Assembly (NCBI GenBank): GCA_002269645.1 | Contig: NIVC01000486.1 | Coordinates: 62,001-126,000, forward strand | Reading direction: 5' to 3' | Length of the DNA stretch: 64,000 nt | DNA from: Macrostomum lignano | Lineage: Eukaryota | Shown: positions 8,328 to 32,823 of the stretch, in pieces | Position numbering within the stretch: position 1 is the stretch's first letter | How the letters are laid out: each line of letters opens with the position of its first letter | The notes under the pieces: model-generated | What the model was told of the DNA's origin: nothing | Database searches by the model: none | Seen by the model: the letters and a program-made list of their open reading frames with translations, nothing else | Position numbers and translations under genes: made by a program

Positions 8328-8337
8328 AGAACAAAAA

Positions 8338-8736: not shown

Positions 8737-8746
8737 CAATATAAAA

Positions 8747-9721: not shown

Positions 9722-10665
9722 GCTCCTGGGGGGTGGGTCTGGACACCAAAAACGCAAATTAAAAAATCAATAATTCAAATACTATATAAATTATATTCTA
9801 TAAAATGGAAGCAATTTTAGCTCAAATCGACAAACCTAATATAAGAGCTGAAATGGAAGCACAAATTAGAGCAGAAATAGAAGAACAAATTAGAGCAGAA
9901 ATAGAAGCAGAAATTAGAGCAAAATATGAAAAACGTTTAGAAAAGCAATTAGATGATATTGACAACCCTAAACCACAAAGACAAAATGGGGCAGAAGTAA
10001 TAGATATAGATATTGATATAAATACAAATTATAAAGAATATTTTAAACAAATGAAAGATAAATTAAAGACCATATTAGATAACTATACTATAAGACCAAA
10101 TAACAAACGACAGCCAATTAAGTATAAAATAGAAGTTGAAACAGAATTTAAAAAACCAAATATACTTAATGCAAATTCAGAAATTGAAGTAATAAATAAC
10201 TTTTCACAAGAATCATATAAAACATTATTATCAATGGGAAATTACAACAATCAATTTAATCAAGTAGAAGCTGAGTTTGATGAATGGATAGATAAGATGA
10301 CAGAAAACGGATCTGGGTTTATATTTGTTTCATGTAATTCAGCAACAGTAAAGATTGTTCCTATTGAAATTCTTAAAGGGCGATCACATATGAAGCTATA
10401 CTTTAAATCACCAATGATTATAAATCCAGACAATAATGATAATAAATGTTTATTATGGTGTTTATTAATTCATAAATATCATAAACAAGTAGAATCACAT
10501 GTTAATAAAATATATAATTATAGACAATATGAGAATGAAATAATAATGAAAAACATCTCATACCCAGTAGCCATAGATGATATATATAAGATTGAAAAAA
10601 TGAATGGTTTAAATATTAATGTTTTTACAATTGAAGAACCAGAAGAAGAAGTAATTCTAGCCGAT

Positions 10666-10693
10666 CGGACGGAGTCCGCGACCCATCAGGTCG
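10666..10693. other. GC-rich double hairpin in frame inside polB
   Basis: CGGAC-GGA-GTCCG directly followed by CGACC-CATCA-GGTCG; CGAT recurs at a 30-bp offset. Confidence 0.8.
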
Positions 10694-12803: not shown

Positions 12804-13887
12804 TGTAACAGTTGCCTATTATTTTGCTTACTTTGCCTATTTTTGTCTATTTTGTCTACTGATTTCACGTATAATACGAATATTTTTCTAAAAACTACAA
12901 AACATTATTTGTGCCTACATAAATGAATATTTTATCATTAGTAGTAATTATTAGTCTCAATTAGTAGCCTACCGTATAATCTAGTATTTGATTAGTTTAA
13001 ATGCGTCCGCCATTTTGTTAGCAAATTCTATATAAGCAAGAAAAATATATCGAGAGAGGATATTCCTTCGGCCTCCTCCTGCCTTACCTGCTTTGTTCGC
13101 TGAGACCTCCGCTAGTCTAGTTATTCAGCGGTTGTAACTGAACACTGTTCTAAAAATAGCTCCGTCTTAGTCATTTAAAGGCGTTCCGCCTTTCCCCTTG
13201 CGAAGCCTGTACAGTAAGAAGTGTTTAAAACTTCTTCCCCCTTTCCCGGGACGCTCAGTCTGCCCCCCTCCCCCCGAGCTTTGTCTCTTTCCCTTCTCCC
13301 AGCAGAACTGGCGCCTGCCGCTTCTGCTCCTCCCCCCCTTTAGTGGACAGTCCGTCTGCTCAGGTGTACAGCCTTATCCCCTCAGACGTTCAGTCTGCCC
13401 CCCCCCTTCCACCGGCATCCCCGCTCCCAACCCCCAATCCTTCCCAGTCAAAATTTCCCACATTCATTAGGCAGATTGCCTTCTTATCTAATGCTGCCAG
13501 CATTCCCTATTAGCATTTAGAAATCTTCCACCAGGACGCTTTCCCAGGCAACTCCGATCCATCGCGAAGCCCTTAATTCCCCTCTCCCATCTATCTTTCC
13601 CGGACTGAGAATAGAAACTGTGTCTTGCCGCTCGGACACACCACGCCACCAGGAGCAACCTACGGCTTACTCCTGTTAGTAGTATAAATTGCGCAGTTTT
13701 CCCCCGAATTCCCAAGAAATCCCCAATAGGCCCCGACCCCTGTAACGAATTGATAGGAACGCAGCTGAGAAAGGAACCCTACAACAAATTGGTGTCAGCA
13801 ATAGGAAAACTTCCCTCCCCCAAGAGCCCTATAACAAAATTTGGTAACAGCGGTGGGATTTTCTTAATAATAAACAGCCCTATAACA
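12804..13887 (+). mobile_element. Solo LTR (1084 bp) inserted in polB
   Basis: TGTAACA...TATAACA ends, 4-bp TSD ATAT (12800-12803/13888-13891), TATATAA near 13029. GC-richer than the flanking Polinton DNA. Confidence 0.9.
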
Positions 13888-14982
13888 ATATTGATAAAGC
13901 AAAGAAATATTTCTCAAAACCTAACTTTAAAGATTTTATAAAATTTGATGATAACTTTATGGGTATTCATATGAGAAATAAAACAACAAAATTTCTTAAA
14001 CCAATATTTATTGGAATGGTTGTTTTAGATTATGCAAAGCTAGTAATGTATGAATATTATTATGATGTTATAAATAAAACATGGCCAGATAACTATCCAA
14101 TATATGCAGACACCGACAGTTTGGTATTTAAGGTTGAAACACCAGATGTCTATAAAGATATGGAAAAAATTAAGGATACATTGGACACCTCCGACTATCC
14201 GGATAACCATCCTTTAAAATCAGATCAAAATAAAAAAGTTGTACTTAAAATGAAAGATGAATTAAATAGCAAAATCATAACCGAGTTTATAGCAATAAGA
14301 TCAAAATGCTATGCATTTAAAGTTTTAGGACAGGAGGGAGAGGTAAAAAAAATAAAAGGGGTATCAAGAGCGGCAGTTAAAAAGATAACATTTGATGATT
14401 ATAAAAACGTACTTTTAGATTATCTTAATACAATTGAAAATTATCATGCTCCACAATATCGATTAAATTCAGATAAGCATCAGATGTTTGTCATCGAGAC
14501 AGATAAAAAAACATTAAGTCCATTTGATGATAAAAGATATTTAGATGATAAAATAAAAACATATCCATATGGTTTAAAAGAAGAGATAAAAAACATGATA
14601 AAAGATAAAAAACAAAAAGAAGATATAATAAGCAAATATATAGAATACAAAGAAGCAATAAATAATTATTATTACGATTGTGATTGCGAATCCGAATGTG
14701 AATGTGAATATAATAAATATCTAGAATATGAAAAAGATATAGATAATTATTATGCAACATTTCCAAAAGAACTTAAAAAATTAAACAAGGAAAAAGTCTT
14801 GAATAACTGGAAGAAATTAACAGAAAAATTACTTATCGGATAAAATCCGCGACCCTTCGGGGCGGAAAAAAACCAAAGCATGTAATTGTTTAAGCATATC
14901 ATTAAGTTCAATTTCATATATTATTGAAGGCCAATTTTCTTCGCAGTCGTCAGGGTAACTTAAACATTCTTTTATTTTTTTC

Positions 14983-15201
14983 CTAAGTTTTTTTTATTTT
15001 TCTAACAAGACGATCAATTTCAATTTCAATTACTATTTCAGCATAATTAATTGCTTTTTGTATAAAACGTTTTCTTTTATCCAAGTCGTATCGGATAGGA
15101 AACATATCGTCCCCATAATCACTATAAAACATATTATTTATTTTTTTATTAATATAATTAAGTTCACGCTCTTTAGTGATAAGGATAATTTGTATCTCCA
15201 T
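14983..15201 (-). CDS. Small Polinton protein of unknown function
   Basis: AAAATG start, convergent with polB; no recognised motif. Confidence 0.5.
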   Translation of the reverse strand: MEIQIILITKERELNYINKKINNMFYSDYGDDMFPIRYDLDKRKRFIQKAINYAEIVIEIEIDRLVRKIKKT

Positions 15202-15217
15202 TTTCTTATAAAAAAAT

Positions 15218-15550
15218 TTAGTCATCTTCGTCAGTCTCCCAAACGGCAGCCAATTTTACAGTCCTGTCACTCTTTTTATTATTTGTTTGTTTTAGTTTAA
15301 ATTGCAACCCACCCTCGGTGCTGTATTTTATAATGAACGCTTTAGGTTTATTAATAACTAAAACTGGAAAATTTTTAACATCATTCCCACTTAGACATAG
15401 TATTGTTTGCCCATCTAATTGTAAAAATATCGATTGAAGTCCAATAAATTTAACCTGTCTCAAACATATAATATTATATTCTTTATTCTCCAACATATTG
15501 GGTGTGAGATAATTAATCACATTAGAATCGGTTTTGAACCAACTTTCCAT
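15218..15550 (-). CDS. Small Polinton protein of unknown function (110 aa)
   Basis: TAAAAATG start; tightly packed ORF. Confidence 0.55.
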   Translation of the reverse strand: MESWFKTDSNVINYLTPNMLENKEYNIICLRQVKFIGLQSIFLQLDGQTILCLSGNDVKNFPVLVINKPKAFIIKYSTEGGLQFKLKQTNNKKSDRTVKLAAVWETDEDD

Positions 15551-15576
15551 TTTTAATCTAAAAAAATAACAAAAAA

Positions 15577-16095
15577 ATGAAAGACATTTATGAATGTAAA
15601 AAATGTAATGTGACTATGCATAGAGCTCAAACAGCAAGCGGAGATATATATCATACCGGTATGTGCTATTCATGTTCTAAAATATATCAATTTGAAAAAA
15701 CAAAAAAGATTGAAAACTCATATTACTATTTTAAAAACACAATTTTAAGAAATCTTACAAGAGACATTTCTCATCCAATTTTAATTCCCGGAAATAATGT
15801 TTATTTATGTAACAACTTTTTCCATTTAAATAAAGGAAAGGGATTAAGTTCGAAAGACTCCGAAAGGATTTTAATTTTAGTTGGATATTATTTTAATTTT
15901 CTTATTCGAGAGAATACAAAGTTTATAAGGATAGGTAACATACCTAACGAAATGTTATTGAAAAAGTCGTTGAAATTTTTATGTATTGATAAAAAATTTA
16001 AACCTAGAATTACAAGAGAATTACCACTTTGGGAAGAATATATAACGTATGCGTTAGAAAAACTAAACAACATTAAGTTCTACCGCACTACCTGA
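15577..16095 (+). CDS. Polinton protein with an N-terminal CxxC...CxxC putative zinc ribbon (172 aa)
   Basis: ECKKC...MCYSC; AAAAATG start. Confidence 0.55.
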   Translation: MKDIYECKKCNVTMHRAQTASGDIYHTGMCYSCSKIYQFEKTKKIENSYYYFKNTILRNLTRDISHPILIPGNNVYLCNNFFHLNKGKGLSSKDSERILILVGYYFNFLIRENTKFIRIGNIPNEMLLKKSLKFLCIDKKFKPRITRELPLWEEYITYALEKLNNIKFYRTT

Positions 16096-17080
16096 CCTTG
16101 GGCTTTGTACCCCAGTACCAATAGTTTCGGGTTCGTAAATACCTAATGTTTCTATCGGTGGAGCTTTGGGTTTATCGAGTCTCAACTCTTTTAATTCCAT
16201 ATCGGTAAAAGTTTCAACATCTAAAATTCTATTTCGATCTTTTAAATATTTTTCATATAATTCAACCGCCGTTGATAACTCATGAATTGTTATCTCTCCA
16301 TCATCCAATATTTTTTGCACATATAAATACAACTGATTTTTATATTGTTTTGCAATATCTCTTAATGATTTATATTTATCCTTTCGTTTTTTAAGATATA
16401 ATTTAATTGCCATAAGTATTGATAAATTTCTGATTAATTCAAATCCTGATATTGAGCCAATCCTATATACTAAATCCTATATACTAAAAATGAAAATCTT
16501 GCTTGCTTGCTTGCTTGCTTGTAATCGATTAGAGAAAAAATGGCTTAACCGATTTTCATGAGACTTGCACTGTTCGATCAGAAATTTTCCCGTGACGGTA
16601 CATGCATCGTGGCTAAGAAATTGCTCGATGCTAAAGGCATTAAATATTCGAAAAACATGCTTTTTTGCAAAGGTCAAGCAAACTTTTCGACTTGAAATGC
16701 ATTGTACGAATGCTAGAGAAAAAATTGACTGGTTGATTCTGATTCTGAAATAGATTGCATCATAACTGAATTGTAACTCCGACTTGAATCGAAAATGCAG
16801 TGTGGAAGCGTAGCACCAGACTTGATTTATATTGCGTAACCATATTGTTAACTGATACTGACTGACTGAGAAATTGATTATGTCATAACTGCCTCGTGTG
16901 ATTTACTCCATGCTTGGAGTTTTGAAACTTATAATTATAAGTGCTAAAATTCATATTATCAAAACGATGAGAGCTAGCCTAGAGGTAAACAGACTGACTG
17001 CTAAATGCAGGGACGATGGTTCGAATTTTTAGAGAGTGGAATTTTTTTAATTAAAGCTTTTTAACACCAAGAAGAAAACT

Positions 17081-20000
17081 AAAAAATCATAGAAGCGTCA
17101 TGTAAAAAATCATAGAAGCGTCATGTAAACAATCATAGAAGCGTCATGTAAAAAATCATGGAAGCGTCATGAAAAAACCATAGGAGCGTCATGAAAAAAT
17201 CATAGAAGCATCATGTAAAAATCATGGAAGCGTCATGTAAAAAATCATAGAAGCGTCATGTAAAAATCATAGAAGCGTCAAGTAAACAATCATAGAAGCG
17301 TCATGTAAAAAATCATAGAAGCGTCATGTAAACAATCATAGAAGCGTCATGTAAAAAATCATAGAAGCGTCATGTAAACAATCATAGAAGCGTCATGCAA
17401 AAAATCATAGAAGTGTCATGTAAAAAATCATGGAAGCGTCATGTAAAAATCATAGAAGCGTCATGAAAAAATCATGGAAGCGTCATGTAAAAAATCATGG
17501 AAGCGTCATGAAAAAAAACCATGGAAGCGTCATGTAAAAAATCATAGAAGTGTCATGTAAAAAATCATGGAAGCGTCATGTAAAAAATCATAGAAGCGTC
17601 ATGTAAAAATCATAGAAGCGTCATGTAAAAATCATAGAAGCGTCATGTAAAAAATCATGGAAGCGTCATGTAAAAATCATAGTAGCGTCATGTAAAAAAT
17701 CATAGAAGCGTCATGAAAAAATCATAGAAGCGTCATGAAAAAAACATAGGAGCGTCATGAAAAAATCATAGAAGCGTCATGTAAAAAATCATGGAAGCGT
17801 CATGAAAAAAAACCATGGAAGCGTCATGTAAAAAATCATAGAAGTGTCATGTAAAAAATCATGGAAGCGTCATGTAAAAAATCATAGAAGCGTCATGTAA
17901 AAATCATAGAAGCGTCATGTAAAAATCATAGAAGCGTCATGTAAAAAATCATGGAAGCGTCATGTAAAAATCATAGTAGCGTCATGTAAAAAATCATAGA
18001 AGCGTCATGAAAAAATCATAGAAGCGTCATGAAAAAAACATAGGAGCGTCATGAAAAAATCATAGAAGCGTCATGTAAAAATCATAGAAGCGTCATGAAA
18101 AAATCATGGAAGCGTCATGTAAAAAATCATGGAAGCGTCATGTAAAAATCATAATAGCGTCATGTAAAAAATCATAGAAGTGTCATGTAAAAAATCATGG
18201 AAGCGTCATGTAAACAATCATAGAAGCGTCATGTAAAAAATCATAGAAGCGTCATGTAAACAATCATAGAAGCGTCATGTAAAAAATCATAGAAGCGTCA
18301 TGTAAACAATCATAGAAGCGTCATGCAAAAAATCATAGAAGTGTCATGTAAAAAATCATGGAAGCGTCATGTAAAAATCATAGAAGCGTCATGAAAAAAT
18401 CATGGAAGCGTCATGTAAAAAATCATAGAAGCGTCATGAAAAAATCATAGCAGCGTCATGAAAAAAAACCATGGAAGCGTCATGTAAAAATCATAGAAGT
18501 GTCATGTAAAAAATCATGGAAGCGTCATGTAAAAATCATAGAAGCGTCATGTAAAAATCATAGAAGCGTCATGTAAAAAATCATGGAAGCGTCATGTAAA
18601 AATCATAGTAGCGTCATGTAAAAAATCATAGAAGCGTCATGAAAAAATCATAGAAGCGTCATGAAAAAAATCATAGAAGTGTCATGTAAAAAATCATGGA
18701 AGCGTCATGTAAAAATCATAGAAGTGTCATGTAAAAAATCATGGAAGCGTCATGTAAAAAATCATAGAAGCGTCATGTAAAAATCATAGAAGCGTCATGT
18801 AAAAATCATAGAAGCGTCATGTAAAAAATCATGGAAGCGTCATGTAAAAATCATAGTAGCGTCATGTAAAAAATCATAGAAGCGTCATGAAAAAATCATA
18901 GAAGCGTCATGTAAAAATCATAGAAGCGTCATGTAAACAATCATAGAAGCGTCCTGCAGATATCGTAGAAGCGTCATGAAATAATCATAGAAGCGTCATG
19001 TAAAAAGCATAGAAGCGTCATGTAAAAAATCATAGAAGCGTCATGTAAACAATCATAGAAGCGTCATGTAAAAAATCATAGAAGCGTCATGTAAACAATC
19101 ATAGAAGCGTCATGTAAAAAATCATAGAAGCGTCATGTAAACAATCATAGAAGCGTCATGCAAAAAATCATAGAAGTGTCATGTAAAAAATCATGGAAGC
19201 GTCATGTAAAAATCATAGAAGCGTCATGAAAAAATCATGGAAGCGTCATGTAAAAAATCATAGAAGCGTCATGAAAAAATCATAGAAGCGTCATGAAAAA
19301 AAACCATGGAAGCGTCATGTAAAAATCATAGAAGTGTCATGTAAAAAATCATGGAAGCGTCATGTAAAAAATCATAGAAGCGTCATGTAAAAATCATAGA
19401 AGCGTCATGTAAAAAGCATAGAAGCGTCATGTAAAAAATCATAGAAGCGTCATGTAAACAATCATAGAAGCGTCATGTAAAAAATCATAGAAGCGTCATG
19501 TAAACAATCATAGAAGCGTCATGCAAAAAATCATAGAAGTGTCATGTAAAAAATCATGGAAGCGTCATGTAAAAATCATAGAAGCGTCATGAAAAAATCA
19601 TGGAAGCGTCATGTAAAAAATCATAGAAGCGTCATGAAAAAATCATAGAAGCGTCATGAAAAAAAACCATGGAAGCGTCATGTAAAAATCATAGAAGTGT
19701 CTTGTAGAAAATCATGGAAGCGTCATGTAAAAAATCATAGAAGCGTCATGTAAAAATCATAGAAGCGTCATGTAAAAATCATAGAAGCGTCATGTAAAAA
19801 ATCATGGAAGCGTCATGTAAAAATCATAGTAGCGTCATGTAAAAAATCATAGAAGCGTCATGAAAAAATCATAGAAGCGTCATGAAAAAAACATAGGAGC
19901 GTCATGAAAAAATCATAGAAACGTCATGTAAAAATCATAGAAGCGTCATGTAAAAATCATAGAATCGTCATATAAAAAGCATAGAAGCGTCATGTAAACA

Positions 20001-20480
20001 ATCATAGAAGCGTCATATACAAAGCATAGAAGCGTCATATAAACAATCACAGAAGCGTCATGAAAAAATCATGGAAGCGTCATGTAAAAATCATAGAAGT
20101 GTCATGTAAAAAATCATGGAAGCGTCATGAAAAAATCATAGAAGCGTCATGAAAAAATCATAGAAGCGTCCTGCAGAAATCGTAGAAGCATCATGTAAAC
20201 AATCATAGAAGCGTCATGTAAACAATCATCGAAGCGTCATGAAATAATCATAGAAGCGTCATGTAAAAAGCATAGAAGCGTCATGTAAAAAGCATAGAAG
20301 CGTCATGTAAAAAGCATAGAAGCGTCATGTAAACAATCATAGAAGCGTCATGAAAAAATCATAGAAGCCTCATTTAAAAACTAATGAAAGCGTCATTTAA
20401 AAAAATAAGAAGCATCATGGAAGAATAAAAGAAGTGTAATGTAAAAATCAAAAGAAGCGTCATGTCAGACATTAAGGATG
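17081..20480. repeat. About 22-bp satellite array (AAAAATCATAGAAGCGTCATGT, roughly 150 units) inside the Helitron
   Basis: Tandem units with A-tract length variation and recurring higher-order blocks. Confidence 0.97.
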
Positions 20481-21256
20481 TCATGTAAAAATGAAATGCA
20501 GCTATAATGCTGTGCTGGGAAGAAAAACTGAGACGTAAAGGCTCTCAGAGAATAACTGAGATTACGAGGGGGGGGGTTGTTTCTGGGATCTCAAAGCAAA
20601 AGTCAGAAGCTACTTCAAAGTTCATGTACTTTACTCAATTTTTTATTGCATTCTTTGTTGGCTCGCCATGGGGGGGGGGGGTGCTGATAGAAGAAGAGTC
20701 ATGTAAAAAATAAAAGTAGCACTATGTATACATAAAAGACAAGTCATGTCGAAGTTAAAAGATTCATTTGGGAATTGCTACGATGTCAAAGCTTGGTGGA
20801 AATCGTTATAGTGCTGTGATTCTTAAAGAAGGAATCACTAAAATGTCAAGGCTTAGGGGAGAAGAATTGCTGAGATTTCAAGGCTTTAGGTTGGGTTAAA
20901 GTTATGTTTAGGTCAGGTGTGGGTTGAGGGTTATATTTTATCGGGTTTCAAGGTTAACAGTGGATTTTTTAGATTTCAAGGTTTATGGGGGCCATCGCTG
21001 ACATGTCAAGGCTTACGGACGCGGGGGGGAATAGCTGAGATGTCAAGGCTCACGGGGGTATAAATGAGATTTCAAGGCTAAAGTCAGAAGCTACATGTAG
21101 TTTATTGAAAACTTTTTATTACATTATTTGATGCCTCCTCAGGCGAGGGATCGCTGATAAAAAAAGCGTTATGTAAAAAATAAAAGAAGCTTATCGCTAT
21201 AATGCTGTAGTAGTGCTATAATGACTCTTAGAGAGAATTACTGAAATTTCAATGCT

Positions 21257-21295
21257 TTAGGGTTAGGTTAGGGTTAGGGTTAGGGTTAGGGTTAG
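21257..21295 (+). repeat. Interstitial telomere-type (TTAGGG)n tract inside the Helitron
   Basis: Five TTAGGG, one TTAGG and one partial unit. Confidence 0.8.
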
Positions 21296-21762
21296 AAGGT
21301 TGACAGATATTTTTAGATTTCCAAGGCTTATTGGGGGCATTGCTGAGATGTCAAGGGGGGAAGTTGATATGTTAAAGCTGGGGGGGGGAATTACTGACAT
21401 GTCAAGGCTTACAAGGTTTGACAGGAGATTTTTTAAGATTTCAAGGATACATGTAGCTTATTAAAAAAACGTGTAAAGCATTTCTTTGGCTCCCCAACGG
21501 GGGGCGTAGATTGCTAGTTGAAATACCTAAAAATAATTGAGATAAATTAAGAGTTGGAATAGATTGTAAAATACCTAAAACGATTACACATAACATCGAT
21601 AAGCTTCCAAAACCAATATTGAAAAAATCCATATTTCTGATATGGTTTGAAATCCTTCTTACTTTTTTAACATATAAATTATAATCATAGTTAATACGAT
21701 CAACATTACTTAACATGTGACCTTTACGTTGGTTAAAATGGTCACGTTCCCTTTTATCTGCC

Positions 21763-22089
21763 TCAGATACTGACATTTTCGTCTATTTTTAATAGCACCA
21801 AAATGAATTCCCCGCGCTCTTTGGGTATTTGTCCGGAGCTTAATAGGTATTGTATCGGAGTGATTCTTTCTTTTTTCTCCCATTTAAATCCTATTTTCCA
21901 AAACTCTTGAAGTATAATATGATTTTTTAACAATTTAATTAATTCTTGAAGTTTCTTATTATCCTGAACATTCACATGACTAAATAAATATTTGGTATGA
22001 GATTTGTATGTTTTTATATTTGATTCTTGTTTAGGAATAGGAATAATAACATTATTTTGCCGCATCGATGGGGTTCTACTAAAAGCCAT
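21763..22089 (-). CDS. Small Polinton protein of unknown function (108 aa)
   Basis: TATAAAATG start; overlaps the next ORF start. Confidence 0.6.
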   Translation of the reverse strand: MAFSRTPSMRQNNVIIPIPKQESNIKTYKSHTKYLFSHVNVQDNKKLQELIKLLKNHIILQEFWKIGFKWEKKERITPIQYLLSSGQIPKERGEFILVLLKIDENVSI

Positions 22090-23113
22090 TTTATATATAA
22101 ATATTTTATATAGCTACGGGTGGTTTTTCTAAATAACCAGTAGAAGGAAAAACATAACCAAACGATGTGCTACCACAAACGGCTGCGCCACGAATAAAAT
22201 GTGCGGCATCTGCTCCTCCAGTTCGAGCACCAAAACCCATAAGGGTTCCAGCTTTATCTAAAGTTCCCCAATTTCCACTATCGTATGTGAAAACGTTCTG
22301 GCCAATTAGCGTATAAGCATCACCAGCAACATTGTATGTGTTTATTTGATACCAAACTCTTTGATTTAAAATATTAATTTCAAATAAATGCCAATCGCCG
22401 TTATCAATATTTGCATAAGTTATAGTTTGATCAGCATCATTAAGAACATCATTACGAACTGTTGCTCCGTCTGATTTTATATTACTCCAAACAACTCCAA
22501 CTCTATCATGCCATTCACTCGCAAACACAATCAAGCCGGCGTTGGTTGTTAACCCGGATCCAAATTCACTTGTTGGTCGTTCGTGACAATATGCATAAAA
22601 CCAAACCGCATCAGCACCACTTCCTGTGGCATTAGCAACTCGGAAATAGAAGGAGGCGGATATATTACGAAAATGGGTGAAATTAAATTGCAACGCTCCA
22701 GACTGACCACTTGCTTCATCAGTAATTCTAGCTCCATTTTGATAATCAATATAAGTAGCGTCACCAACAAAACTTCCAGTTGGAAAAATATCGCCGGCGG
22801 TGGTTGGATTTTGATATCCAGTCCAATTGCAAATCACAGGCTCGTACAAAGCGGCATCAATCGCGGGTATTCCATCCAATTTTATTTTATCGTTAAAAGA
22901 CATTCGGCCATCCGCCGTTTGGGTTACTCGCGTATCAACATAACCTTTAGTAACAACGGAAGTGTTATCGTTTATAGTAGAGATATTAGTAATTGTATTA
23001 CCACCCATATCAATTGATTGATCAACCACTCCTAAATTTGAGGTAAGGTAGCACGCTTTAGCAGGCAGAGAAAAACAAAAGTTAAAATCAACATAGATTA
23101 CAATTAATTCTTT

Positions 23114-23158
23114 CTACCGACGCGTTTCGGACCAACAATGGCCATCTTCAGGGTCTAG
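23114..23158 (-). ncRNA. Hammerhead ribozyme (Penelope-type, minimal palindromic stem III)
   Basis: ACC-CUGAAGA-UGGCCAUUGUUGGUCC-GAAACGCGUC-GGU core. Confidence 0.75.
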
Positions 23159-23995
23159 TGTATTTTTAACACTCACAACAACTTTATATAAGTGAACAAA
23201 TGTTAACTGTACAGTCCAAAGGGCATGTCATGGGCAGAATTTTCCAAAAATGTTAAGCATATAGATTGCAAGTACATTGTTCAGACTTGTGCCTTTACTT
23301 AGAATACATTGAGCAAATGGCCCGCACCACTATGGGAGAGCTGAATATTCAGATTAGGTTTTTGGTCTTTAATGTACATGGATTCAAGTATGTTGAGTCT
23401 AAAATCAGTTCTACACCGATCAATAATTATAAACTGCTGAGTTTGCTCAATTTCGCAACAACTGTTGCAACTGAGCAGGTGGTCTTGGATAGCCGACCTT
23501 TTCAACCAATGCTCTCTGACTCTGGTGTACAGGTGCCTTTTAGTTTTACCTATATAGGTAATGTTCTGGTCAACAGAACAAGAGAATTTATACACAACAC
23601 CTGCCGCCAGAACAAGAGGAACATGGGATTTCAGTCTACTAACGTATTGGCCAACCTTAGCAGTGCGGAAAACAATCTTAATAGGCGTGTTAAAGAATTA
23701 ACAAGAATACTCAAACCGATTATTGGATTATTGATCGGTGTAGAACTGATTTTAGACTCAACATACTTGAATCCATGTACATTAAAGACCAAAAACCTAA
23801 TCTGAATATTCAGCTCTCCCATAGTGGTGCGGGCCATTTGCTCAATGTATTCTAAGTAAAGGCACAAGTCTGAACAATGTACTTGCAATCTATATGCTTA
23901 ACATTTTTGGAAAATTCTGCCCATGACATGCCCTTTGGACTGTACAGTTAACATTTGTTCACTTATATAAAGTTGTTGTGAGTGTTAAAAATACA

Positions 23996-24040
23996 CTAGA
24001 CCCTGAAGATGGCCATTGTTGGTCCGAAACGCGTCGGTAG
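23996..24040 (+). ncRNA. Hammerhead ribozyme, inverted copy
   Basis: CTGAAGA at 24003, GAAAC at 24026, predicted cleavage after GUC at 24035. Confidence 0.75.
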
Positions 24041-25144
24041 AAAGAATTAATTGTAATCTATGTTGATTTTAACTCCTAAATTTAAATCAAGAATTGTAAA
24101 CGTCTGTCTATAAATCTGGAAGGTTGACAGACCTGGGTTGGTTGAACCCGAGGTTGATGTAAGACAGAACAATCTGAAATATTAATATGTTTTATCAAAA
24201 TTTTGTGTTACATTAATTGTTTGAGTTGAGTTATTTATTTCTACAGAACTAGCCGCAGGTATTAATACATCCCAACTTGTATTGTCATTACTTCCCTCAA
24301 ATCGCCATGATGCTGGGTGTTCGGTTGAAGGTGATGGTCTCCCACGCAAATCAATTTTATAACACATTATTGCGGAAGGGCATTGGACTTGAATCCAATA
24401 ATCGGTTTGAGTATTATTTGTTGCCCAATCTGTTGAATCGTCACCATCAAACGCTTTCCAGCTTGCAAAATCGGTTGTATTAAATTCGGTGCTTGCGGTT
24501 ATTGCAAAACCATTTCCACTCCAATCTGCCATGGTAGGTATGTGACCAGTTTCAACCGTTTGGAATCGATCTTGTTTTGGGGCTCCACCCCCAACTAAAT
24601 TATCAACCTCCGTTTTGGTATAAGAATCAGCAACATTCCGTTTTAAATTTAAGGAATTATCAACTTCGGTTTTGGTATAAGAATCGGCAACATTCCGTTT
24701 CAAATTTAAGGAATTATCAACTTCGGTTTTGGTATAAGAATCAGCAACATTCCGTTTTAAATTTAAGGAATTATCAACTTCGGTTTTGGTATAAGAATCA
24801 GTTATATCTCTTTTCAAATTTAATGAATCATCAATTTGAGTTCGAGAATAAGAATCAGCAATATCTCTTTTTAAATTTATTAAATTATCTATTTCAGTTT
24901 TGGTATATGAATCGGCCGTATTGCGTTTTAAATTGAATGAATTATCTATTTGAGTTTTGGTATAAGAATCTGCAACATTTCTTTTTAAATTTAGTTTAGT
25001 ATCAACTTCACTTTTTTTATAACCTTCATCTTCATTAATATATCGGTTATCTCCGAATGTGACGCTTATTCCACCAGACGTACCACCGCCAGTACTTGTT
25101 GTTCCGTTCCATGAGGGTGTTCCAGAAAATAACATTTTTACTGT

Positions 25145-25585
25145 CTATTTTATAGAGTCTAAAATCGCTTTAAATACTTCGGGGGTTACACGAGCTTCAT
25201 TCGAAAGTCGATATAAAAAATACAACACCGCTTGTCCGCAATAACTTTTGTCAAAGGTTTGAAATTGTTCGTGATGATCTCCACATAAACGATTTTTAGT
25301 ATGATTAAATTTATCTCTTATTTCCTGTAACGGAGGAAGCGCGTATGAATCAAAAAAATAAACAAGTTTAGGTTTGGAATAAACTGCCGACCAATGAACA
25401 CCATTTTCTTTTGTCGTTTCGATGTTGACAATGAAACATCCATATATTGGTAAATCTTTTATCTCATCCCGCATAACATATCTGAATGGTTTTATTTTTA
25501 GTTGCCGCGCCCAATTTGTTAATTCGATATTGCTTGTTGTGTCTGTTCCATATCTTTGTTTAAAATCATCCCACGTCATGGTCAT
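25145..25585 (-). CDS. Adenain-like cysteine protease
   Basis: GVHWSAVY (His), YFFDSY (Asp), QTFDKSYCGQ (Gln/Cys). Confidence 0.93.
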   Translation of the reverse strand: MTMTWDDFKQRYGTDTTSNIELTNWARQLKIKPFRYVMRDEIKDLPIYGCFIVNIETTKENGVHWSAVYSKPKLVYFFDSYALPPLQEIRDKFNHTKNRLCGDHHEQFQTFDKSYCGQAVLYFLYRLSNEARVTPEVFKAILDSIK

Positions 25586-25615
25586 TTTATGTTCCTGAAA
25601 AACTCTTGGTTTTGG

Positions 25616-25756
25616 TTAGTTTTGTAGGTTTGGATTTAACAGTTCCTTTCGGATTTTTTCTGCCTGTAATTGTTTTAATTTTGTTAATTCGATTTCATAA
25701 TTATCTTTTGCATTTTGAACTTTCTCTGATTGTTTTTTTAAACTATTGTTACCCAT
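25616..25756 (-). CDS. 46-aa coiled-coil-like ORF below the ORF-track cutoff (MGNNSLKKQSEK...)
   Basis: TAAAAATG start; fills the gap between the penton and protease genes. Confidence 0.5.
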   Translation of the reverse strand: MGNNSLKKQSEKVQNAKDNYEIELTKLKQLQAEKIRKELLNPNLQN

Positions 25757-25800
25757 TTTTACTATAGGAAACGGACAATGTCCTCGAACCGAAGGTTCGG

Positions 25801-26586
25801 CTAAACCTGTTTTATACGTAAAATCACTGTTATTGACTGCCCACCAAAACTTATTAATCTATCGGTTTCGTCTACAATCCTAATATAAATTGATTGAACA
25901 CTATATTGATTTAATGGGTAATATATTGGGGTTTGAGGTGAAACAATCATTTTCTCTCCAATTGGAACAGCAAGAAATGGGATTGAATAAATAATTCCAC
26001 GTTGAACCAAAACTCCGTTATCGTCTGTTATATAACCGCCGTTTGATATGTCGGTTGTTATATTAATTGTGTTGACTCCGCCCTCGATATTTCCAACTGT
26101 ATCGCCGGTGCTTGATGTGGTAACTATTCGGGAATTAAATCCAAGTATGGTTCTGAGTGAATTTGTAATTGTAAAATCAACCTGATATCCGGATTCTAGG
26201 GAGAGTGTGAATCTGCCAGATGGTAAATCAACACCTATAACAATCGCGCCCGCTACCCAATCGCCGTTAGCTGTTAATTCTCCTTCTATATAAGCGTTCA
26301 AATCAGTATAGCTATACGCACCCGGGCTAACACTAAATGTTGTCCAATTGGCTCCGGAATCTTTAGAATATCTAAATTGATTATTTGTTGCATTAATTAA
26401 TTGAGGCATGTTGAAAACCGAAAATAATATCAAACCTATTTTATAACTTAGGCTTTGATCAAGTTGTAACGGATCGCGCAATTGAATCCGTTGCTCGCTG
26501 GTTGTCATTATAAACTGTAAAGTTGTACTAAATTTTGAATTAGTTCTATCTACCAATTGTTTTATAGTATTTAAATTTGTTGCCAT
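25801..26586 (-). CDS. Minor capsid protein (penton, single jelly roll)
   Basis: TNNQFRY...SPGAYSYTDLN...LRTILGF...PIYYPL...IRIVDETDRLISFGG pattern of Polinton minor capsids. Confidence 0.85.
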   Translation of the reverse strand: MATNLNTIKQLVDRTNSKFSTTLQFIMTTSEQRIQLRDPLQLDQSLSYKIGLILFSVFNMPQLINATNNQFRYSKDSGANWTTFSVSPGAYSYTDLNAYIEGELTANGDWVAGAIVIGVDLPSGRFTLSLESGYQVDFTITNSLRTILGFNSRIVTTSSTGDTVGNIEGGVNTINITTDISNGGYITDDNGVLVQRGIIYSIPFLAVPIGEKMIVSPQTPIYYPLNQYSVQSIYIRIVDETDRLISFGGQSITVILRIKQV

Positions 26587-26634
26587 TTTTATAGTGGTAA
26601 ATCGCCCCGTAGGGTCGCGTTCCGAAGGAACGAA

Positions 26635-27399
26635 CTAAGTCTCTTCTTCCTCATTATCTTCTTTTATCAGATCTCTTAAGATTCGATTTTTCCTTTCTAA
26701 CCTAGGGTTGATATATATATGTTTGTATTGGCTGTCATCCCAAATTTTTTTACACATACTTTTAAATGGTTTTATATCCAACCCGGGATTAAATCTAGCG
26801 TGTATATTTTGTAAATCATAATTATCTAAATCAAACATTACACAACAACTTGCATTGTTTTTTATAATCGATTCTAATTCTCTAAAGGACTGTGTTAGAT
26901 AAAAAGCTCCAATTCCATCTCCTCTACCACTAACAAAAATTTCCTTTTGTAATTCTTGATCGCCGTCGTTAATACAATCATCAAAAATAATTAGTGTTTT
27001 ATCATTTTTTGGAATTTGATGATAGGGTAACCGGGTCGATACTCTAACAGTTGGGGCTCGTTCGGTGATGTTTTCCGGTTGTTGTGCCATTGTTTTACAT
27101 AAATCCTCAATGTCATCGAGTGTAAATCGCGGTTCGTCATCATCCTCATATTGCTCATATGCTCTTAACATTCTAAACAAGACATCTTTTTTTAATTTGT
27201 TTTTTAATCCATGTTTAAGAAATTCATAATATTTTATTCTAGGTTTGTTAGTATAAATTATTAAATTATTATAGTCTATCATTCCATCGGTTGTTAACAG
27301 GTCATAAACAAAGTGTGTTTTTCCTTTACCCGACCCACCAATTACTAAACAAAGAAAAGGATCATTTGGAAATATCTTATTGTGTTTTGCTTTTACCAT
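26635..27399 (-). CDS. A32-like (FtsK-HerA) genome packaging ATPase
   Basis: Walker A GGSGKGKT, Walker B LIIFDD, GR....FYLTQSF motif. Confidence 0.93.
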   Translation of the reverse strand: MVKAKHNKIFPNDPFLCLVIGGSGKGKTHFVYDLLTTDGMIDYNNLIIYTNKPRIKYYEFLKHGLKNKLKKDVLFRMLRAYEQYEDDDEPRFTLDDIEDLCKTMAQQPENITERAPTVRVSTRLPYHQIPKNDKTLIIFDDCINDGDQELQKEIFVSGRGDGIGAFYLTQSFRELESIIKNNASCCVMFDLDNYDLQNIHARFNPGLDIKPFKSMCKKIWDDSQYKHIYINPRLERKNRILRDLIKEDNEEEET

Positions 27400-27484
27400 T
27401 TTTAAAGATAAAATTTAAATTGGTGCGACGGTCGGAGACCTGCGCCGCTTACAGCGGGGCGACGTGCTTTGCACTGCGCTCATT

Positions 27485-28957
27485 TTACAATGGCGCGTCC
27501 CGAACGATAGTGCCATCAGCTTTAGCAATTGATAAATATTCCTCTAGAAACAATACGTGGGCGTCGATTGCCTGATTACCGGTTTTATTAATCTCTAACA
27601 TATAATTAAGTCCAATATTGGCTACGTTTTCTTTCTGTGCCGTTAGATCATAAACAACCACTGGATGGATGTTTAGAAACTCTGTGGGAGTGTACTGAGG
27701 AACGGCAAACGCTTCATTTTTGGCATAATCTTGATAATATTTTATAAAATCATTAACATCATTATTTGCAATATTTAGATTAAGAGGATCTTTAACCGGA
27801 TAGTATTGGTCATCAACCTGCAGGCGGATATTCTGAACATTAAACTCGTTAATAGCCGCAACCGCATTATCTGTTGCAGTGGCCGCTTGTGCTGCTATGG
27901 CACCCGATTGAAGCCAATATAAATCCCCGTTTGCTCTTTTACTCCTTCTATTTGTTATCTTAAACCAAACAAAAATATATCTCACCCGACGTTTTGATGT
28001 CAGTATTTGCCACTGGAATGAATCCTGATTGTTATTAATGGTTCGCATAAAATGTCTACGATTCAAATAAAATATTTCTTGATCATGCGTTAACTGATTA
28101 TCGACATGTTTTAATAGTGGTGCTGTTACCTCGATAGTTGGCACGACTAATTGTATTGATGCTATACTAACTGCTATATCGGTTGAAATCGAGGTTCCAT
28201 AAAGTATCCTAGGCTGATACCCACCAGATATTTGCAACTGTACCCCAAATTTTAATCCTTTCCATACCCGATTTGGTGAGAAGAATCCAAATAGTGGAAA
28301 GATTGAAAAGTCCTGCTCATATGCCGTTGCCGTGGTTAAAACTGCAACTGGGAATTTATTCCGACGATCTATAAAACCGGTGTTAATATCTTTTGTATTA
28401 GTCATAGTGGTTACAACTGGAACTATATTGGTATTAAGGTAAGCAATTAGAGCTGCAGTATCTGCACCAGCTGCGTTTTGTACATTAGGGAAAACTACTG
28501 CTTGACCGTTACCTTTATCAGGCATCCACCCAACATTATCACCAACTTGTTTTGATAAATAAGTATAATTTAAATGTTTCAAAACTCCATTAATCTCTGC
28601 GGGGTTTGATGATGTCTCAACCTCGGCACCATTAACAGTTAGTTGAGCTTGGGAAAAACATTTATAAAACCAATCATTTTCTATTATTATTCCGGATCGA
28701 TCTGCGATATCTCCGGCTGCAAGAGCAGTTCCATCATTTCTAGTATACAACCATCTAACGCGGAAAAATGCATTTTTCATATCCAATATGGTGTTGGTTG
28801 CGCCGATGTCAAAAGCTACCGTTCTGCTAGTAAAGTTATTTGTATTATCACTTGTTGGTAGGGTATAATTTAAATCTCTTGCTCTGGCCTCATTAATATA
28901 CTGGCGGTGCTTTTTGAAATAAAATTTATCACTCCATATAGTTTTTGTTTCAGCCAT
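27485..28957 (-). CDS. Major capsid protein (double jelly roll), intact 490 aa
   Basis: Size, position next to the ATPase and penton, and motifs LDMKNAFFRV, FSQAQLTVNGAEVE, IRLQVDDQYYP, PVVVYDLT. Confidence 0.8.
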   Translation of the reverse strand: MAETKTIWSDKFYFKKHRQYINEARARDLNYTLPTSDNTNNFTSRTVAFDIGATNTILDMKNAFFRVRWLYTRNDGTALAAGDIADRSGIIIENDWFYKCFSQAQLTVNGAEVETSSNPAEINGVLKHLNYTYLSKQVGDNVGWMPDKGNGQAVVFPNVQNAAGADTAALIAYLNTNIVPVVTTMTNTKDINTGFIDRRNKFPVAVLTTATAYEQDFSIFPLFGFFSPNRVWKGLKFGVQLQISGGYQPRILYGTSISTDIAVSIASIQLVVPTIEVTAPLLKHVDNQLTHDQEIFYLNRRHFMRTINNNQDSFQWQILTSKRRVRYIFVWFKITNRRSKRANGDLYWLQSGAIAAQAATATDNAVAAINEFNVQNIRLQVDDQYYPVKDPLNLNIANNDVNDFIKYYQDYAKNEAFAVPQYTPTEFLNIHPVVVYDLTAQKENVANIGLNYMLEINKTGNQAIDAHVLFLEEYLSIAKADGTIVRDAPL

Positions 28958-28991
28958 TTTTTTAAGTTAAAAAAGTTTTTTATGTTAAAAA

Positions 28992-29687
28992 ATGAGCCAA
29001 TTTATGGACGTTGATGGAGAGTTAGCGATTTATAAAGAGAAGCAAAGATATTCTGATTTTGTTAGAAATTTACAAAAAAGAAAGTTAGGAATAGAATTAG
29101 CTGGCGAAAGATTTGCTGCTCCTTTTGTTAATCCTATTACGGGGAAAATTAGTGAACTAGAAAAAACAGATAAAGGCCTTCTGGAAAAAACAGATAAAGG
29201 CCTTCTGGAAAAAATTGCTAAAAATACGGAGCCAAAAGAGGATGAAATTTTGGATGAGCCGCCTGCTTATGAGGTTGATAACGCACTATTGAGAGTTGCA
29301 GAGATTAGGGCTGCAGAAAGGGATGGAGTTGAACAATTTCAAAGAGATGCGCCACGTAGTATTGCTGTTACAGATTTAGGTAGTGGTAATTATCGAATTG
29401 GTGGAGTTGATAAAAATCGAAATGAACTATATAGAGAATTGGGCGGAGCATTTAATATTATTACGAACCCTAGGGTAAAATTTAGCCCCAATTTATATAC
29501 TAGAGGTGAATTAGTAAGTGCAAAAAATTTTTATGATGAGTTAGGAGTACCAGCTATTAAAAATACCAGCTTGTATAAAAGGATTGTTAATTCTATAAAT
29601 AACATGCCGGCTGTTGGTGAAGGATTTAAAACTCCTAGAAAACTTGTTTTAGCTGCCGCGAAAGCTGCTGGACATACAGGTATTTAA
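28992..29687 (+). CDS. Polinton protein of unknown function (231 aa), possibly related to the conserved PZ-type ORF
   Basis: AAAAATG start; VGEGF and LAAAKAAGHTG motifs. Family assignment is tentative. Confidence 0.55.
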   Translation: MSQFMDVDGELAIYKEKQRYSDFVRNLQKRKLGIELAGERFAAPFVNPITGKISELEKTDKGLLEKTDKGLLEKIAKNTEPKEDEILDEPPAYEVDNALLRVAEIRAAERDGVEQFQRDAPRSIAVTDLGSGNYRIGGVDKNRNELYRELGGAFNIITNPRVKFSPNLYTRGELVSAKNFYDELGVPAIKNTSLYKRIVNSINNMPAVGEGFKTPRKLVLAAAKAAGHTGI

Positions 29688-29715
29688 TTAATTGTTAAAT
29701 TTATTTTTTTATAAA

Positions 29716-30330
29716 ATGGAATCTAAATTTTGTAATAAATGTAAAGAAGAGAAAATTTTGGATTATTTTAGATTTCGTAGAGATCAAAATAGATATTATA
29801 GTATTTGCAAACCTTGTGAGAGAAAGTATGATAAAGAATGGTATGAGAAAAATCGTGAATATAAGCTTCAATGGAAAAAAGAATATGATAAAAATAATAT
29901 AGAAAGGCGCAGAAAATATCAAAATGAAAGAAGATTAACTGATGAAAATTACAAACTTATTTTAAACACACGAAATAGAATATATTCTCTTCTAAAATCT
30001 AATAATGCTCGAAAAAATAATCATACTGTTGATTACCTTGGTTGCTCAATTGAATTCTTTACTGATTGGTTAAATTTCACAAAACATTATTATGTGCCAA
30101 AAGATTATATTGGTGTTTTGCATGTTGACCATTTTATTCCTGCTTCATCTTTTGATTATCGCGATGAAGAACAAATTAAAAAGTCTGAAAATTGGAGAAA
30201 TAAAAGATACTTAGTTGCTGTAGATAATATTTCAAAAAATGATAAACAACCAACCATAGAAGAATTTGCAAAACAATTGGTGCTTTCAAGTATTTTTAAG
30301 GCTATTAAAAATGAGCCAATTAGTGTTTGA
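29716..30330 (+). CDS. Free-standing HNH homing-endonuclease-like protein (204 aa)
   Basis: N-terminal CNKC...CKPC zinc motif, basic helical region, YLGCS..F..WL and LHVDHFIPASSFD...N...DNISK, as in giant-virus-type HNH proteins. Confidence 0.8.
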   Translation: MESKFCNKCKEEKILDYFRFRRDQNRYYSICKPCERKYDKEWYEKNREYKLQWKKEYDKNNIERRRKYQNERRLTDENYKLILNTRNRIYSLLKSNNARKNNHTVDYLGCSIEFFTDWLNFTKHYYVPKDYIGVLHVDHFIPASSFDYRDEEQIKKSENWRNKRYLVAVDNISKNDKQPTIEEFAKQLVLSSIFKAIKNEPISV

Positions 30331-31940
30331 AGGAGGATTGTTAGATGTTCAAAAAGGATTAACAAGCTTACCACCAATCTTTACTACTGGAAGGTATACA
30401 AATAAATTACACATCCCATCTTACAACTTCGCGGGTGGAGCTCGAGCTGTGCCCGAGTGGTAGATGCAAAGCTACTGCTAGTCACTATTAGTGGCAACAC
30501 CAGCCGCTCACTCAATCCCCTAAAGCTTCAAGTACCACTTTGTTTTCGAAAGATTACAAAGGAACAGAGGTAACTCCTCTTCCCAACGGTAACAAGCTTG
30601 AAGATAAATATATGGGCAAGAGTGAATCGAAAACCTAACCTCATATGACTTGAGTATGGTTGAGATGCAACGACTGTACGCTGGTGGGCTTGAAGGACTT
30701 AGTCAATCCTTATGATAGCTTAAGACACAGTCTACTCCTTTGTGAAAGCAAAGGTATAAAGGCCGGGTTGACTCGACTCGATCTCCGATTAAATCCTGAT
30801 AATACACCAAAAGCCGATTCAATTCCCATTAACGGTATTGATTGGTTAGCATACTATCATGACTTAGCATACAGAGATGCTGATAAGAACTCACCCGAGG
30901 AAGCATTAAGATTAAAACATGAAGCTGATAGAAAAATGATTCAAGGATTAGATAACTTACAGGGGTTATCGGTAAGCCAAAGATTAACTCGGTGGATGGT
31001 TAAAAAAATCTTACAATCTAAAGTTAAATTTGGATTGGGAATTAATTACAATCAACATGGAAATAATTGTGTTGAGTGTTTATTATTAAGTGGCAGTGGG
31101 TTAAGTTCTGATGAGGCAAAGATTCTTCATAAAGAATATCGAAAACCTAAATTTTATAGAAAAATCATGAACTTCAAAAAGAATGAAATTTGGTATGCTG
31201 ATTTAATGTCTATGCCGATCGAAAGAGGATATAAATATATCTTAACCATATTAGATGGTTTTACTCGATATGCGTGGGCTGTTCCTTTAAAATCCAAAAA
31301 AGGAGAGGATGTTGCGGCTGCTTTTAGAAGTCTTGGAGAAAAAAGTGAACGATCGAACGGAGTTCGCGTTCTTTCAGAACGATTATGTGTTGATGAGGGA
31401 AAAGAATTTTACAATCCTCATATGTATAAATTATATCATTTTGAAAAAGGACAAGAAAGGAAGAAAGGCGCGAATGGGGAGTATATTAATAAAATTTATT
31501 CTATTTATGGAGAAAGTAAAAACGCATTAATAGAAAGATTTAATCGAACTGTAGGTAAGAAATTGTGGTTTCAGTTTAGTCTTAATGGTAACCAAAAGTG
31601 GGTAAAAATATTACCAGACGTTGTGAAAGATTATAACAATTCATATCATTCGGCTATAAAGATGACTCCTCAACAAGCTTATAACAATCCTGAAAAAGTT
31701 AAAGTTACTTTTGGAGAATTTGAAAAAAATAAAAAGAAATCTTTTAAGGTTGGTGATTCTGTTTATATCTATAAATGGAAAAATAAGTTTGAAAAGGGAA
31801 GAAAAGGATATTGGAAAATAAGTGAGAAATTTACCATCAGTAGGGTTTTAAATACCAATCCTACAACCTATATAATTGCTGATAAGGATGGTGAAGAAAT
31901 ATTGGGTTCGTTTTATGAGAACCAATTAATACTAGTTTAA
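30311..31940 (+). CDS. Parvovirus-type phospholipase A2 fused to a retroviral-like DDE integrase, interrupted by a group I intron
   Basis: Exon 1 ends LHIPSYNFAG. Exon 2 (PG)TRLDLRLNPD...INGIDWLAYYHDLAY carries the HD dyad. Integrase motifs WYAD, LCVDEGKEF, IERFNRT, YNNSYHSAIKMTP, then an SH3-like C-terminus. Confidence 0.9.
30437..30762 (+). ncRNA. ORF-less group I self-splicing intron with a P5abc extension (IC/IE-like)
   Basis: P1 CGGGU/GCCCG(30451-55); P3 30498-504/30680-86; P4 30508-13/30620-25; P5a 30526-32/30597-603; P5b with GAAA loop; P5c; P6; P7 A(C)GACUG 30670-76/CAGUCU 30728-33; J8/7 AAGACA; P8; P9 30737-54 with GAAA. The 3' G could be 30761, 30762 or 30770. Confidence 0.9.
31354..31381. 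other. GC-rich double hairpin in frame inside the integrase
   Basis: CGAAC-GGA-GTTCG directly followed by CGTTC-TTTCA-GAACG; CGAT recurs at a 30-bp offset. Confidence 0.8.
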
Positions 31941-31944
31941 TTTT

Positions 31945-32169
31945 TTATTTGAGGCAACAAGGTAGTAAATTTTTTATTACAAACAAAAACAATATTATTA
32001 CTATTATTGTTACTAATATTATTATTGACATTTGTTCAACGGTGATTAGACTTAAATTTTGATTAAGTTCATTAACCGGCACATTTCCGATGTAGGAATA
32101 ATTTACCTTCATTTTTTTATATATATTTTTCATAATAAATGTCGTTTCTGTTATAGAATAATAATTCAT
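31945..32169 (-). CDS. Small protein with one C-terminal transmembrane segment (74 aa)
   Basis: Hydrophobic IIILVTIIVIILFLFVI; AAAATG start. Confidence 0.55.
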   Translation of the reverse strand: MNYYSITETTFIMKNIYKKMKVNYSYIGNVPVNELNQNLSLITVEQMSIIILVTIIVIILFLFVIKNLLPCCLK

Positions 32170-32184
32170 TTTTTAAATATTTTT

Positions 32185-32499
32185 TTACATAAAAATTTCA
32201 ATTTCATTCTCAGAATCACTGGTTTCATATGAACTATTTGTTGATTCGGAATCTGTTGATCTAACCTCCCAATCATCCGAATTTAAATAATCTCCAAGTT
32301 GAAATATTAACTCTCCCTCTTGTTCTAAATCATACATCTCATCTAGCTCTAATGGATAAAGTTTTAGGTCATGCTTGTCGTCATATTTTAAATAAACTTC
32401 ATCAATTATTCCGTTCAAGATATGTTGTTTTATTATCTCTGCATTTTTAGCAACAGTCTCAAAAGTATCACTAACAGAAAAGGTGTAAACTCGGCTCAT
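32185..32499 (-). CDS. Small acidic Polinton protein (104 aa) starting at the inner edge of the right TIR
   Basis: TAAAAATG supplied by the TIR. Confidence 0.6.
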   Translation of the reverse strand: MSRVYTFSVSDTFETVAKNAEIIKQHILNGIIDEVYLKYDDKHDLKLYPLELDEMYDLEQEGELIFQLGDYLNSDDWEVRSTDSESTNSSYETSDSENEIEIFM

Positions 32500-32823
32500 T
32501 TTTAGTAACAGAAAAAGACCCTTCGCGCCTGCGGCGCGTGCGAGGGGTTATAGAGTAGTAGTAATGAAAACAACTCTTCTAGATCAGACCTTATTTTAAT
32601 GGCCGTTTGTAAGGTCTTAAGAGGGGGGACGCGAGGGGATTAATACTAAGTGTTGGGAATGATTTTTATTGATTTTTGTTATTAGGGGGTTTTTAGATGT
32701 GTTTTTGTGTTGGTGGGTGTTTAGATGTGTTTTTTTAATTTCCCCTCGTGTCCCCCCTCTAGACCCTTAAAACGGCTGTTAAAAAAGTGCTCTGGGTCTA
32801 GAAGAGTTGTTTTGCCTACTACT
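32498..32823 (-). repeat. Right TIR (326 bp)
   Basis: Reverse complement of 8002-8327; overlaps the ATG of ORF 32185-32499. Confidence 0.97.

Follow-up and report, generated by a model that had tools for sequence, protein, structure and literature searches.

The PLA2-integrase gene and its intron

The window (the whole 64,000-nucleotide stretch of DNA analysed here) harbours a family-1 Polinton (8002..32823), bounded by 326-bp terminal inverted repeats (TIRs, 8002-8327 and 32498-32823) of 100% identity and flanked by a 6-bp target duplication (7996-8001 and 32824-32829). The element encodes an rve integrase, an A32 packaging ATPase and protein X, and the TIRs, target duplication, integrase and ATPase together identify it as a Polinton/Maverick. 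From motifs and size, we take the gene at 9805-14843 to be a putative PolB and that at 27485-28957 to be a putative capsid gene; Pfam gave no name to either. The putative PolB (9805-12891) also contains an embedded Endonuclease VII-like domain (PF02945, residues 501-552), and a ~1.1-kb, GC-richer insertion with an LTR-type look lies within the gene (12806-13890). Elsewhere inside the element are a ~3.3-kb satellite (20-22-bp unit) with other non-viral sequence (16420-21440) and an insertion bearing a perfect 348-bp inverted repeat (23080-24074). No methylase family was recognized in the element among the 22 window ORFs or ORF parts scanned, and PF00145 has 12 matches elsewhere in the assembly that contains the window (G000, 764 Mb).

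The region of interest lies on the forward strand, where a 231-aa gene (28992..29687, 81-92% identity across the sister loci compared) is followed by a free-standing HNH gene of 204 aa (subtype H1, 29716..30330), which combines an N-terminal CxxC zinc module, a helical linker and an HNH domain. The HNH ORF overlaps the next gene by 20 nt (PLA2 ATG at 30311), and its stop lies 106 bp upstream of the 5′ splice site of a group I intron; ORFs and the P1 helix thus bear out the arrangement described in an earlier note on this DNA (an HNH gene ending at 30330, overlapping the PLA2 start at 30311 and lying about 106 bp from an intron). The interrupted gene is a PLA2 fused to an rve integrase (PF08398 and PF00665), a fusion absent from that note. 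Exon 1 (30311..30436) ends in the Gly codon of the Gly-Pro pair of the Ca-binding loop, and exon 2 (30763..31940) carries the PLA2 remainder and the integrase, an exon structure supported by intron-less natural copies in family 1 (L041, L059 and L157) and in a second Polinton family (L133, family 2).

The intron (type A, 326 nt, 30437..30762) splits this Gly/Pro codon pair and was delimited by its match to Rfam RF00028, splice-site homology and fold. The RF00028 match covers 30453-30754 (E 1.6e-9) and at 42.9 bits lies below the gathering score of 50, with sister introns scoring 60-89 bits, and the folding z-score is -3.5, a value that none of 100 shuffles reached. At the 5′ splice site (30436/30437), P1 pairs CGGGU with GCCCG through a U-G pair (-8.4 kcal/mol) and covaries to CAGGU/GCCUG in a sister type-C intron; the core has the G-binding G-C pair, and compensatory differences among types A, C and D also occur in P3, P4 and P7 (read by eye). 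Judging from the sequence, position 30762 is most likely the terminal G, since this lets the 3′ exon open with the Pro codon, as it does in every other intron type; P10 energies favoured no single 3′ splice site, nearby candidates pairing about equally well with the guide. The intron had been described as encoding no ORF, and indeed no ATG-initiated ORF of at least 60 aa was found in type A. Its P4 (UCACUC/GAGUGA) and J3/4 are atypical (30490-30690), and the whole looks chimeric, with P2-P5abc resembling type C and P8-P9 resembling both type D and the intron of metagenome contig L244. One type-A copy has an 833-bp transposon-like insertion in the P8 region (L028:2936-4094).

In 24/24 type-A copies, the frame that results from joining the exons at the predicted junction runs into a stop after two codons of exon 2, and 76 of the 105 parsed type-C and type-D introns end in A rather than G, with the G-C pair of P7 kept and the rest of P7 rewritten. 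These two features raise the question of whether most of the introns splice productively. The plainer reading is one of null alleles that drive carries along or that other copies complement in trans. The pentamer targeted by the guide also has a second copy just 3′ of the junction, which, together with the equal pairing of alternative 3′ sites, makes extra RNA processing conceivable. No type-A splice joint was seen in the contigs of four runs presumed to be RNA; a single joint across the intron was rejected as evidence of splicing, its letters being those of the intron-less DNA allele L041. Type C ending in A (e.g., L090, L092, L141) is the commonest intron form in the family.

Nuclease genes in the upstream slot

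The catalytic residues of the HNH protein (D138, H139, N162 and N171) show no variation across 89 aligned homologues. Its SENWRNKRYL segment, previously raised as a possible sign of a dead nuclease, aligns with the HYTNLQPL stretch usual in the family; with the motif conserved, the frame intact in 67 of 95 family-1 copies (11/13 for H1 alone) and dN/dS below 1 (0.26-0.63, 7 pairs), the reading of a dead enzyme was rejected. Subtypes have the nuclease half in common and differ in the N-terminal half, their N-terminal modules being mosaic. The family is very large (49,860 representatives at E 0.001), and the Pfam HNH profile matches 4 of the 89 members, the window protein not being among them. 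The fold model is weak in the catalytic half (pLDDT 63), and the zinc module alone matched Hpy99I (Z 5.8, rmsd 1.7, 40 aligned); sequence and fold searches found no solved relative of the catalytic domain, and a search of NCBIfam returned nothing useful. Relatives occur at 48 viral loci, 36 of which were scanned, and in 5/36 the HNH lies within a group I intron; for four of these five, the intron visibly lies in what we presume, from motifs, to be a giant-virus capsid gene. Giant-virus genes at L246, L249, L257, L267 and L283 hold several group I introns that code for HNH and GIY-YIG-like proteins, with cores closely resembling those of the Polinton introns. We infer that the HNH protein works like a homing endonuclease, and it is probably a rival free-standing homing gene for a slot that it shares with a second nuclease, related to Eco47II.

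To survey this slot, we searched G000 with PLA2 exon 2 and scored 150 of 505 candidates, which with region fetches gave 160 loci; removal of 14 duplicates, 4 truncated loci and 8 loci of family 2 left a set of 134 family-1 copies (L163-L166, with another HNH and intron C, are not counted among them). The Gly/Pro site holds intron A in 24 copies, intron C in 107 and no intron in 3, and the slot upstream of PLA2 is occupied by H1 (13 copies), another HNH (82), a 167-aa Eco47II-like nuclease (37) or an acidic protein (2). In the latter two copies (L022 and L061), the acidic protein has 153 aa and the 3′ end of an HNH gene comes after it; the acidic protein also lies upstream in L059 and L157. Separate searches in which all candidates were scored gave 15 places for H1 and 24 for intron A. 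The two additional H1 copies are rearranged and have no PLA2 (L161 and L162 in G000:C87, an identical pair in which H1 lies head-to-head with the other end of the element, with neither PLA2 nor intron).

The earlier note had proposed that the HNH gene and the intron form a collaborative-homing pair, and had suggested looking for their co-occurrence and for co-conversion tracts. Co-occurrence holds in one direction: H1 is accompanied by intron A in 13/13 copies retaining PLA2 (0/110 others; Fisher p 6e-12, for copies that are related and not independent). In the other direction it does not, as 11 of the 24 intron-A copies have a different slot gene (another HNH in 3, the Eco47II-like nuclease in 7, the acidic gene in 1), with an identical 326-nt intron found beside H1, H2 and Eco47II-like genes, and all three intron-less copies carry an HNH gene, two of them with intact frame and motif. 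All 37 copies with the Eco47II-like gene have an intron; the share of intron-less copies is not significantly different from that among HNH copies (0/37 vs. 3/95, p 0.56).

A co-conversion-like tract was found: H1, exon 1 and intron A lie in a ~1.1-kb block (29750..30850) near-identical among nine copies, with 0-4 mismatches per 100 bp between the copy in the window and eight other H1 copies. Outside the block, mismatches per 100 bp rise to ~7-18 upstream (7-18 in the 231-aa gene, against copies with near-identical HNH and intron) and to 5-14 in the next 200-300 bp downstream. Such a near-identical block within diverged flanks suggests that it moved recently. Across 16 intron-A copies (325-326 nt) with three different slot genes, diversity drops from 0.076 upstream to 0.0012 in the intron and is 0.03-0.05 downstream (0.03-0.08 for the flanks overall), and type-C introns vary by 0.05, which suggests that intron A has moved without H1 too, or that the slot gene was swapped later. 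Nucleotide diversity peaks in the exon beside the intron (0.15-0.21 vs. 0.02-0.09 earlier in exon 1, and 0.12-0.13 just after the intron), and this high diversity of the flanking codons fits an HNH target nearby. The block pattern may also be explained by linkage and recombination alone, without drive.

GGNCC avoidance and the Eco47II-like nuclease

The second nuclease of the slot belongs with the RE_Eco47II family (PF09553), which matched an intronic form of the protein over the cut-off (E 3.7e-6) and the free-standing form under it (E 3.9e-5). Its fold model is confident (pLDDT 92.6), with EcoO109I as the top match (Z 9.7, rmsd 3.8, 160 aligned; next Z 5.9), an enzyme whose site is RGGNCCY; pointing away from a GGNCC specificity, HinfI was found in 22% of members of an Atlas look-alike cluster. 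With dN/dS of 0.22-0.29, the sequences indicate a gene under purifying selection. Among giant-virus relatives, a C5 methylase adjoins the nuclease in 7/7 loci tested, of 10 found. From family, fold and the motif depletion described below, we infer a GGNCC specificity.

The intronic form comes from family 2 in the same assembly, where a canonical group I intron at the same Gly/Pro site encodes a 66%-identical nuclease. Family-2 copies fell into 61 distinct loci, with both intron ends in 26, the 5′ end only in 9, no intron in 22 and an ambiguous state in 4, from searches in which 40 of ~185 candidates were scored in both, so that these counts are not frequencies. No Eco47II-like nuclease was seen near the 22 intron-less copies in the DNA fetched. 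At one locus (L168, G000:C1874), a truncated exon 1 and an intron 5′ end lie upstream of an intact, intron-less family-2 PLA2 gene. The nuclease is likewise inside a group I intron at the Gly/Pro site in contig L244, and several of its database homologues continue into intron-core-like sequence (read by eye). A search of viral contigs with the family-2 PLA2 gave no match, and of the viral HNH or nuclease loci, L244 alone proved to have a PLA2 next to it. Among the loci fetched, no HNH lies inside an intron at the Gly/Pro site.

A Gly codon followed by a Pro codon (GGN-CCN) always spells GGNCC, so that an intron between the two splits this site: the predicted target is present at the junction of intron-less alleles and destroyed by the insertion (GGN/CC). 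In the Polinton of the window, GGNCC is absent from 17.7 kb (0 vs. 22.8 expected, 60 shuffles), a count that leaves out three later insertions picked before counting; six GGNCC lie within the element boundaries, all inside these insertions. Host flanks show no such deficit (81 vs. 83.6 expected), and Gly-Pro pairs are also missing from the element (0 vs. 8.8 expected). Among 1024 gapped 4-mers, GGNCC is the most depleted (counted on both strands, 0 vs. 34; the next motif has a ratio of 0.43). Over ~400 kb of family-1 loci, we counted 12 GGNCC, corresponding to the 3 intron-less junctions, 6 sites that belong to a foreign insertion and 3 upstream sites occurring singly (two of which resemble the foreign insertion), and two family-2 stretches have none (0 vs. 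6.8 and 0 vs. 6.5 expected). Intron-less alleles keep the junction GGNCC in 3 family-1 and 19 family-2 copies, and 3 further intron-less family-2 copies have escaped it through a Pro-to-Gln change. Within family 1, the Eco47II-like nuclease was never found with an unprotected site (0/37, p 0.56, weak alone). The giant viruses speak rather against a GGNCC specificity: clear GGNCC depletion was seen in only one of 10 giant-virus loci (L243, 23 vs. 83.9 expected), and giant-virus contigs L234-L236, with an Eco47II-like gene and a C5 methylase, show strong GANTC depletion instead; GANTC is not depleted in the Polinton.

Taken together, these data probably reflect a methylase-free restriction or homing conflict centred on GGNCC, with the Eco47II-like enzyme rather than the HNH as the likely cutter. 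In the scenario we propose, an Eco47II-family endonuclease orphaned from giant-virus restriction-modification systems would cut GGNCC, and Polintons would have purged this site genome-wide, as the depletion counts indicate. The Gly-Pro pair of the PLA2 Ca-binding loop is the sole GGNCC that cannot be purged without a protein change, and a group I intron between the two codons removes this forced site from the DNA. When genomes meet, an intron-less rival would be cut at the very point of insertion, to be destroyed or else repaired from the genome that has the intron, in which case the intron would spread. With the nuclease inside the intron in family 2 and free-standing just upstream of an ORF-less intron in family 1, the latter arrangement would amount to collaborative homing. 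The HNH would compete for the upstream slot, most likely cutting or nicking nearby exon or slot sequence and dragging exon 1 and the intron along by co-conversion. A 4-base cutter without methylase should also damage host DNA (81 sites in 39 kb), so that its expression is presumably restricted.

It is tempting to go further, to a fuller account whose chances we put at about even. Polintons would wield the orphan restriction enzyme as a methylase-free weapon, with all GGNCC deleted and the self-splicing intron acting as the "modification" that hides the Gly-Pro site. The free-standing and intron-encoded nucleases would represent the before and after of the birth of a mobile intron, with HNH homing genes competing for the slot, and frame-breaking or A-terminated introns would persist either because shielding matters more than splicing or thanks to an unusual second step of processing.

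Alternative readings and known systems

The reading closest to the earlier note is that the nuclease acting on the intron-less PLA2 junction, by cutting or nicking, is H1 itself and that intron A protects against it, both homing together, beside or instead of the GGNCC enzyme. The constant presence of intron A with H1, the near-identical block in diverged flanks, the intact HNH motif and the giant-virus relatives encoded within introns all agree with this, as does the intron-adjacent exon being the most variable part of the gene, which is expected near a nuclease target. The same intron A, however, also accompanies H2 and Eco47II-like genes, related HNH genes sit in all three intron-less copies (two intact), none was seen inside an intron at this site among the loci fetched, and a distance of 106 bp would in any case keep two genes linked by descent; we consider this reading unlikely. 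The earlier note identified the right class of system and probably the wrong enzyme: its homing logic fits the locus and the shared block, but the HNH is not a necessary partner, because intron A occurs with other slot genes, HNH genes occur without the intron and the GGNCC evidence points to the Eco47II-like nuclease.

A scenario without any homing, in which an outside enzyme (e.g., from a co-infecting giant virus with GGNCC restriction-modification) selected for both avoidance and intron while slot genes and blocks reflect ordinary recombination, appears improbable to us. Giant viruses do possess this nuclease family plus a methylase, the Polinton copies are mosaic throughout, and structural constraint may account for part of the intron conservation. 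Against it, Polintons encode the nuclease themselves and keep it under purifying selection, two independent sources have it inside an intron at the predicted cut site, and intron A is far less diverse than its flanks (0.0012 vs. 0.03-0.08) or than type-C introns (0.05).

If the GGNCC conflict is correct, the system offers a target, predicted from sequence and easy to assay, for a conflict of the homing type among endogenous viruses of eukaryotes, whose extrachromosomal co-replication has so far been hard to show. It would also be a natural snapshot of the proposed route from a free-standing nuclease and an ORF-less intron to a composite mobile intron. Site avoidance plus an intron hints at one more way in which a genome may protect itself from a restriction enzyme, and at a reason for introns sitting in Gly-Pro motifs, and the loci are a source of numerous natural variants of group I introns whose core is unusual or whose last base is A. 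Group I introns have reportedly been described in animal polinton-like elements. No paper in the literature searched, which covered few subscription titles, connects a restriction-type nuclease with avoidance of GGNCC and an intron in a Polinton.

Several components have precedents. Group I introns of a similar kind (RF00028, ~300-380 nt) and HNH genes are already reported from Polinton-like viruses (PMC12220804), where, in protist elements, the introns are found in a short gene that lies upstream of the capsid gene and, in the available portion of that text, have no nuclease or target assigned. Collaborative homing has been mentioned for other such viruses (PMC11296320). Adintoviruses have a PLA2-like gene (PLA2X) near protein X (PMC8502044), as here; in the Polinton, PLA2 is fused to the integrase. 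The Eco47II/Sau96I family is tied to GGNCC in two reports (PMC10305163, "without certainty", and PMC9465063), and the Polinton nuclease resembles these type II systems (PF09553) in family, fold and predicted site, its giant-virus relatives being paired with C5 methylases. In contrast to type II restriction-modification, no methylase was found in the Polinton, and self-protection would come from site loss and the intron.

Viral conflict offers further close parallels. In Bodo saltans virus, group I introns with HNH or GIY-YIG nucleases are described as weapons against competing viruses (PMC5871332); there too, introns mask a nuclease target in an essential gene and ORF-less introns are proposed to home in trans, and relatives of our HNH sit in introns of presumed giant-virus capsid genes. 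Unlike in that case, the element here is a Polinton, its enzyme is of the PD-(D/E)XK restriction type and its site of 5 bases is testable. In phages, collaborative homing is known for the cyanophage psbA intron with its free-standing endonuclease and for T4 mobE trans-homing (PMC3984707, PMC2988022). As in those systems, a group I intron without an ORF and a free-standing nuclease converge on one conserved site, nuclease genes are interchangeable in one slot, and a composite intron is the proposed next stage. The Polinton differs in being a eukaryotic endogenous virus, with one nuclease both free-standing and intron-encoded in the same genome, and in pairing a short-site, restriction-type nuclease with genome-wide avoidance, whereas the phages use a long-site homing enzyme.
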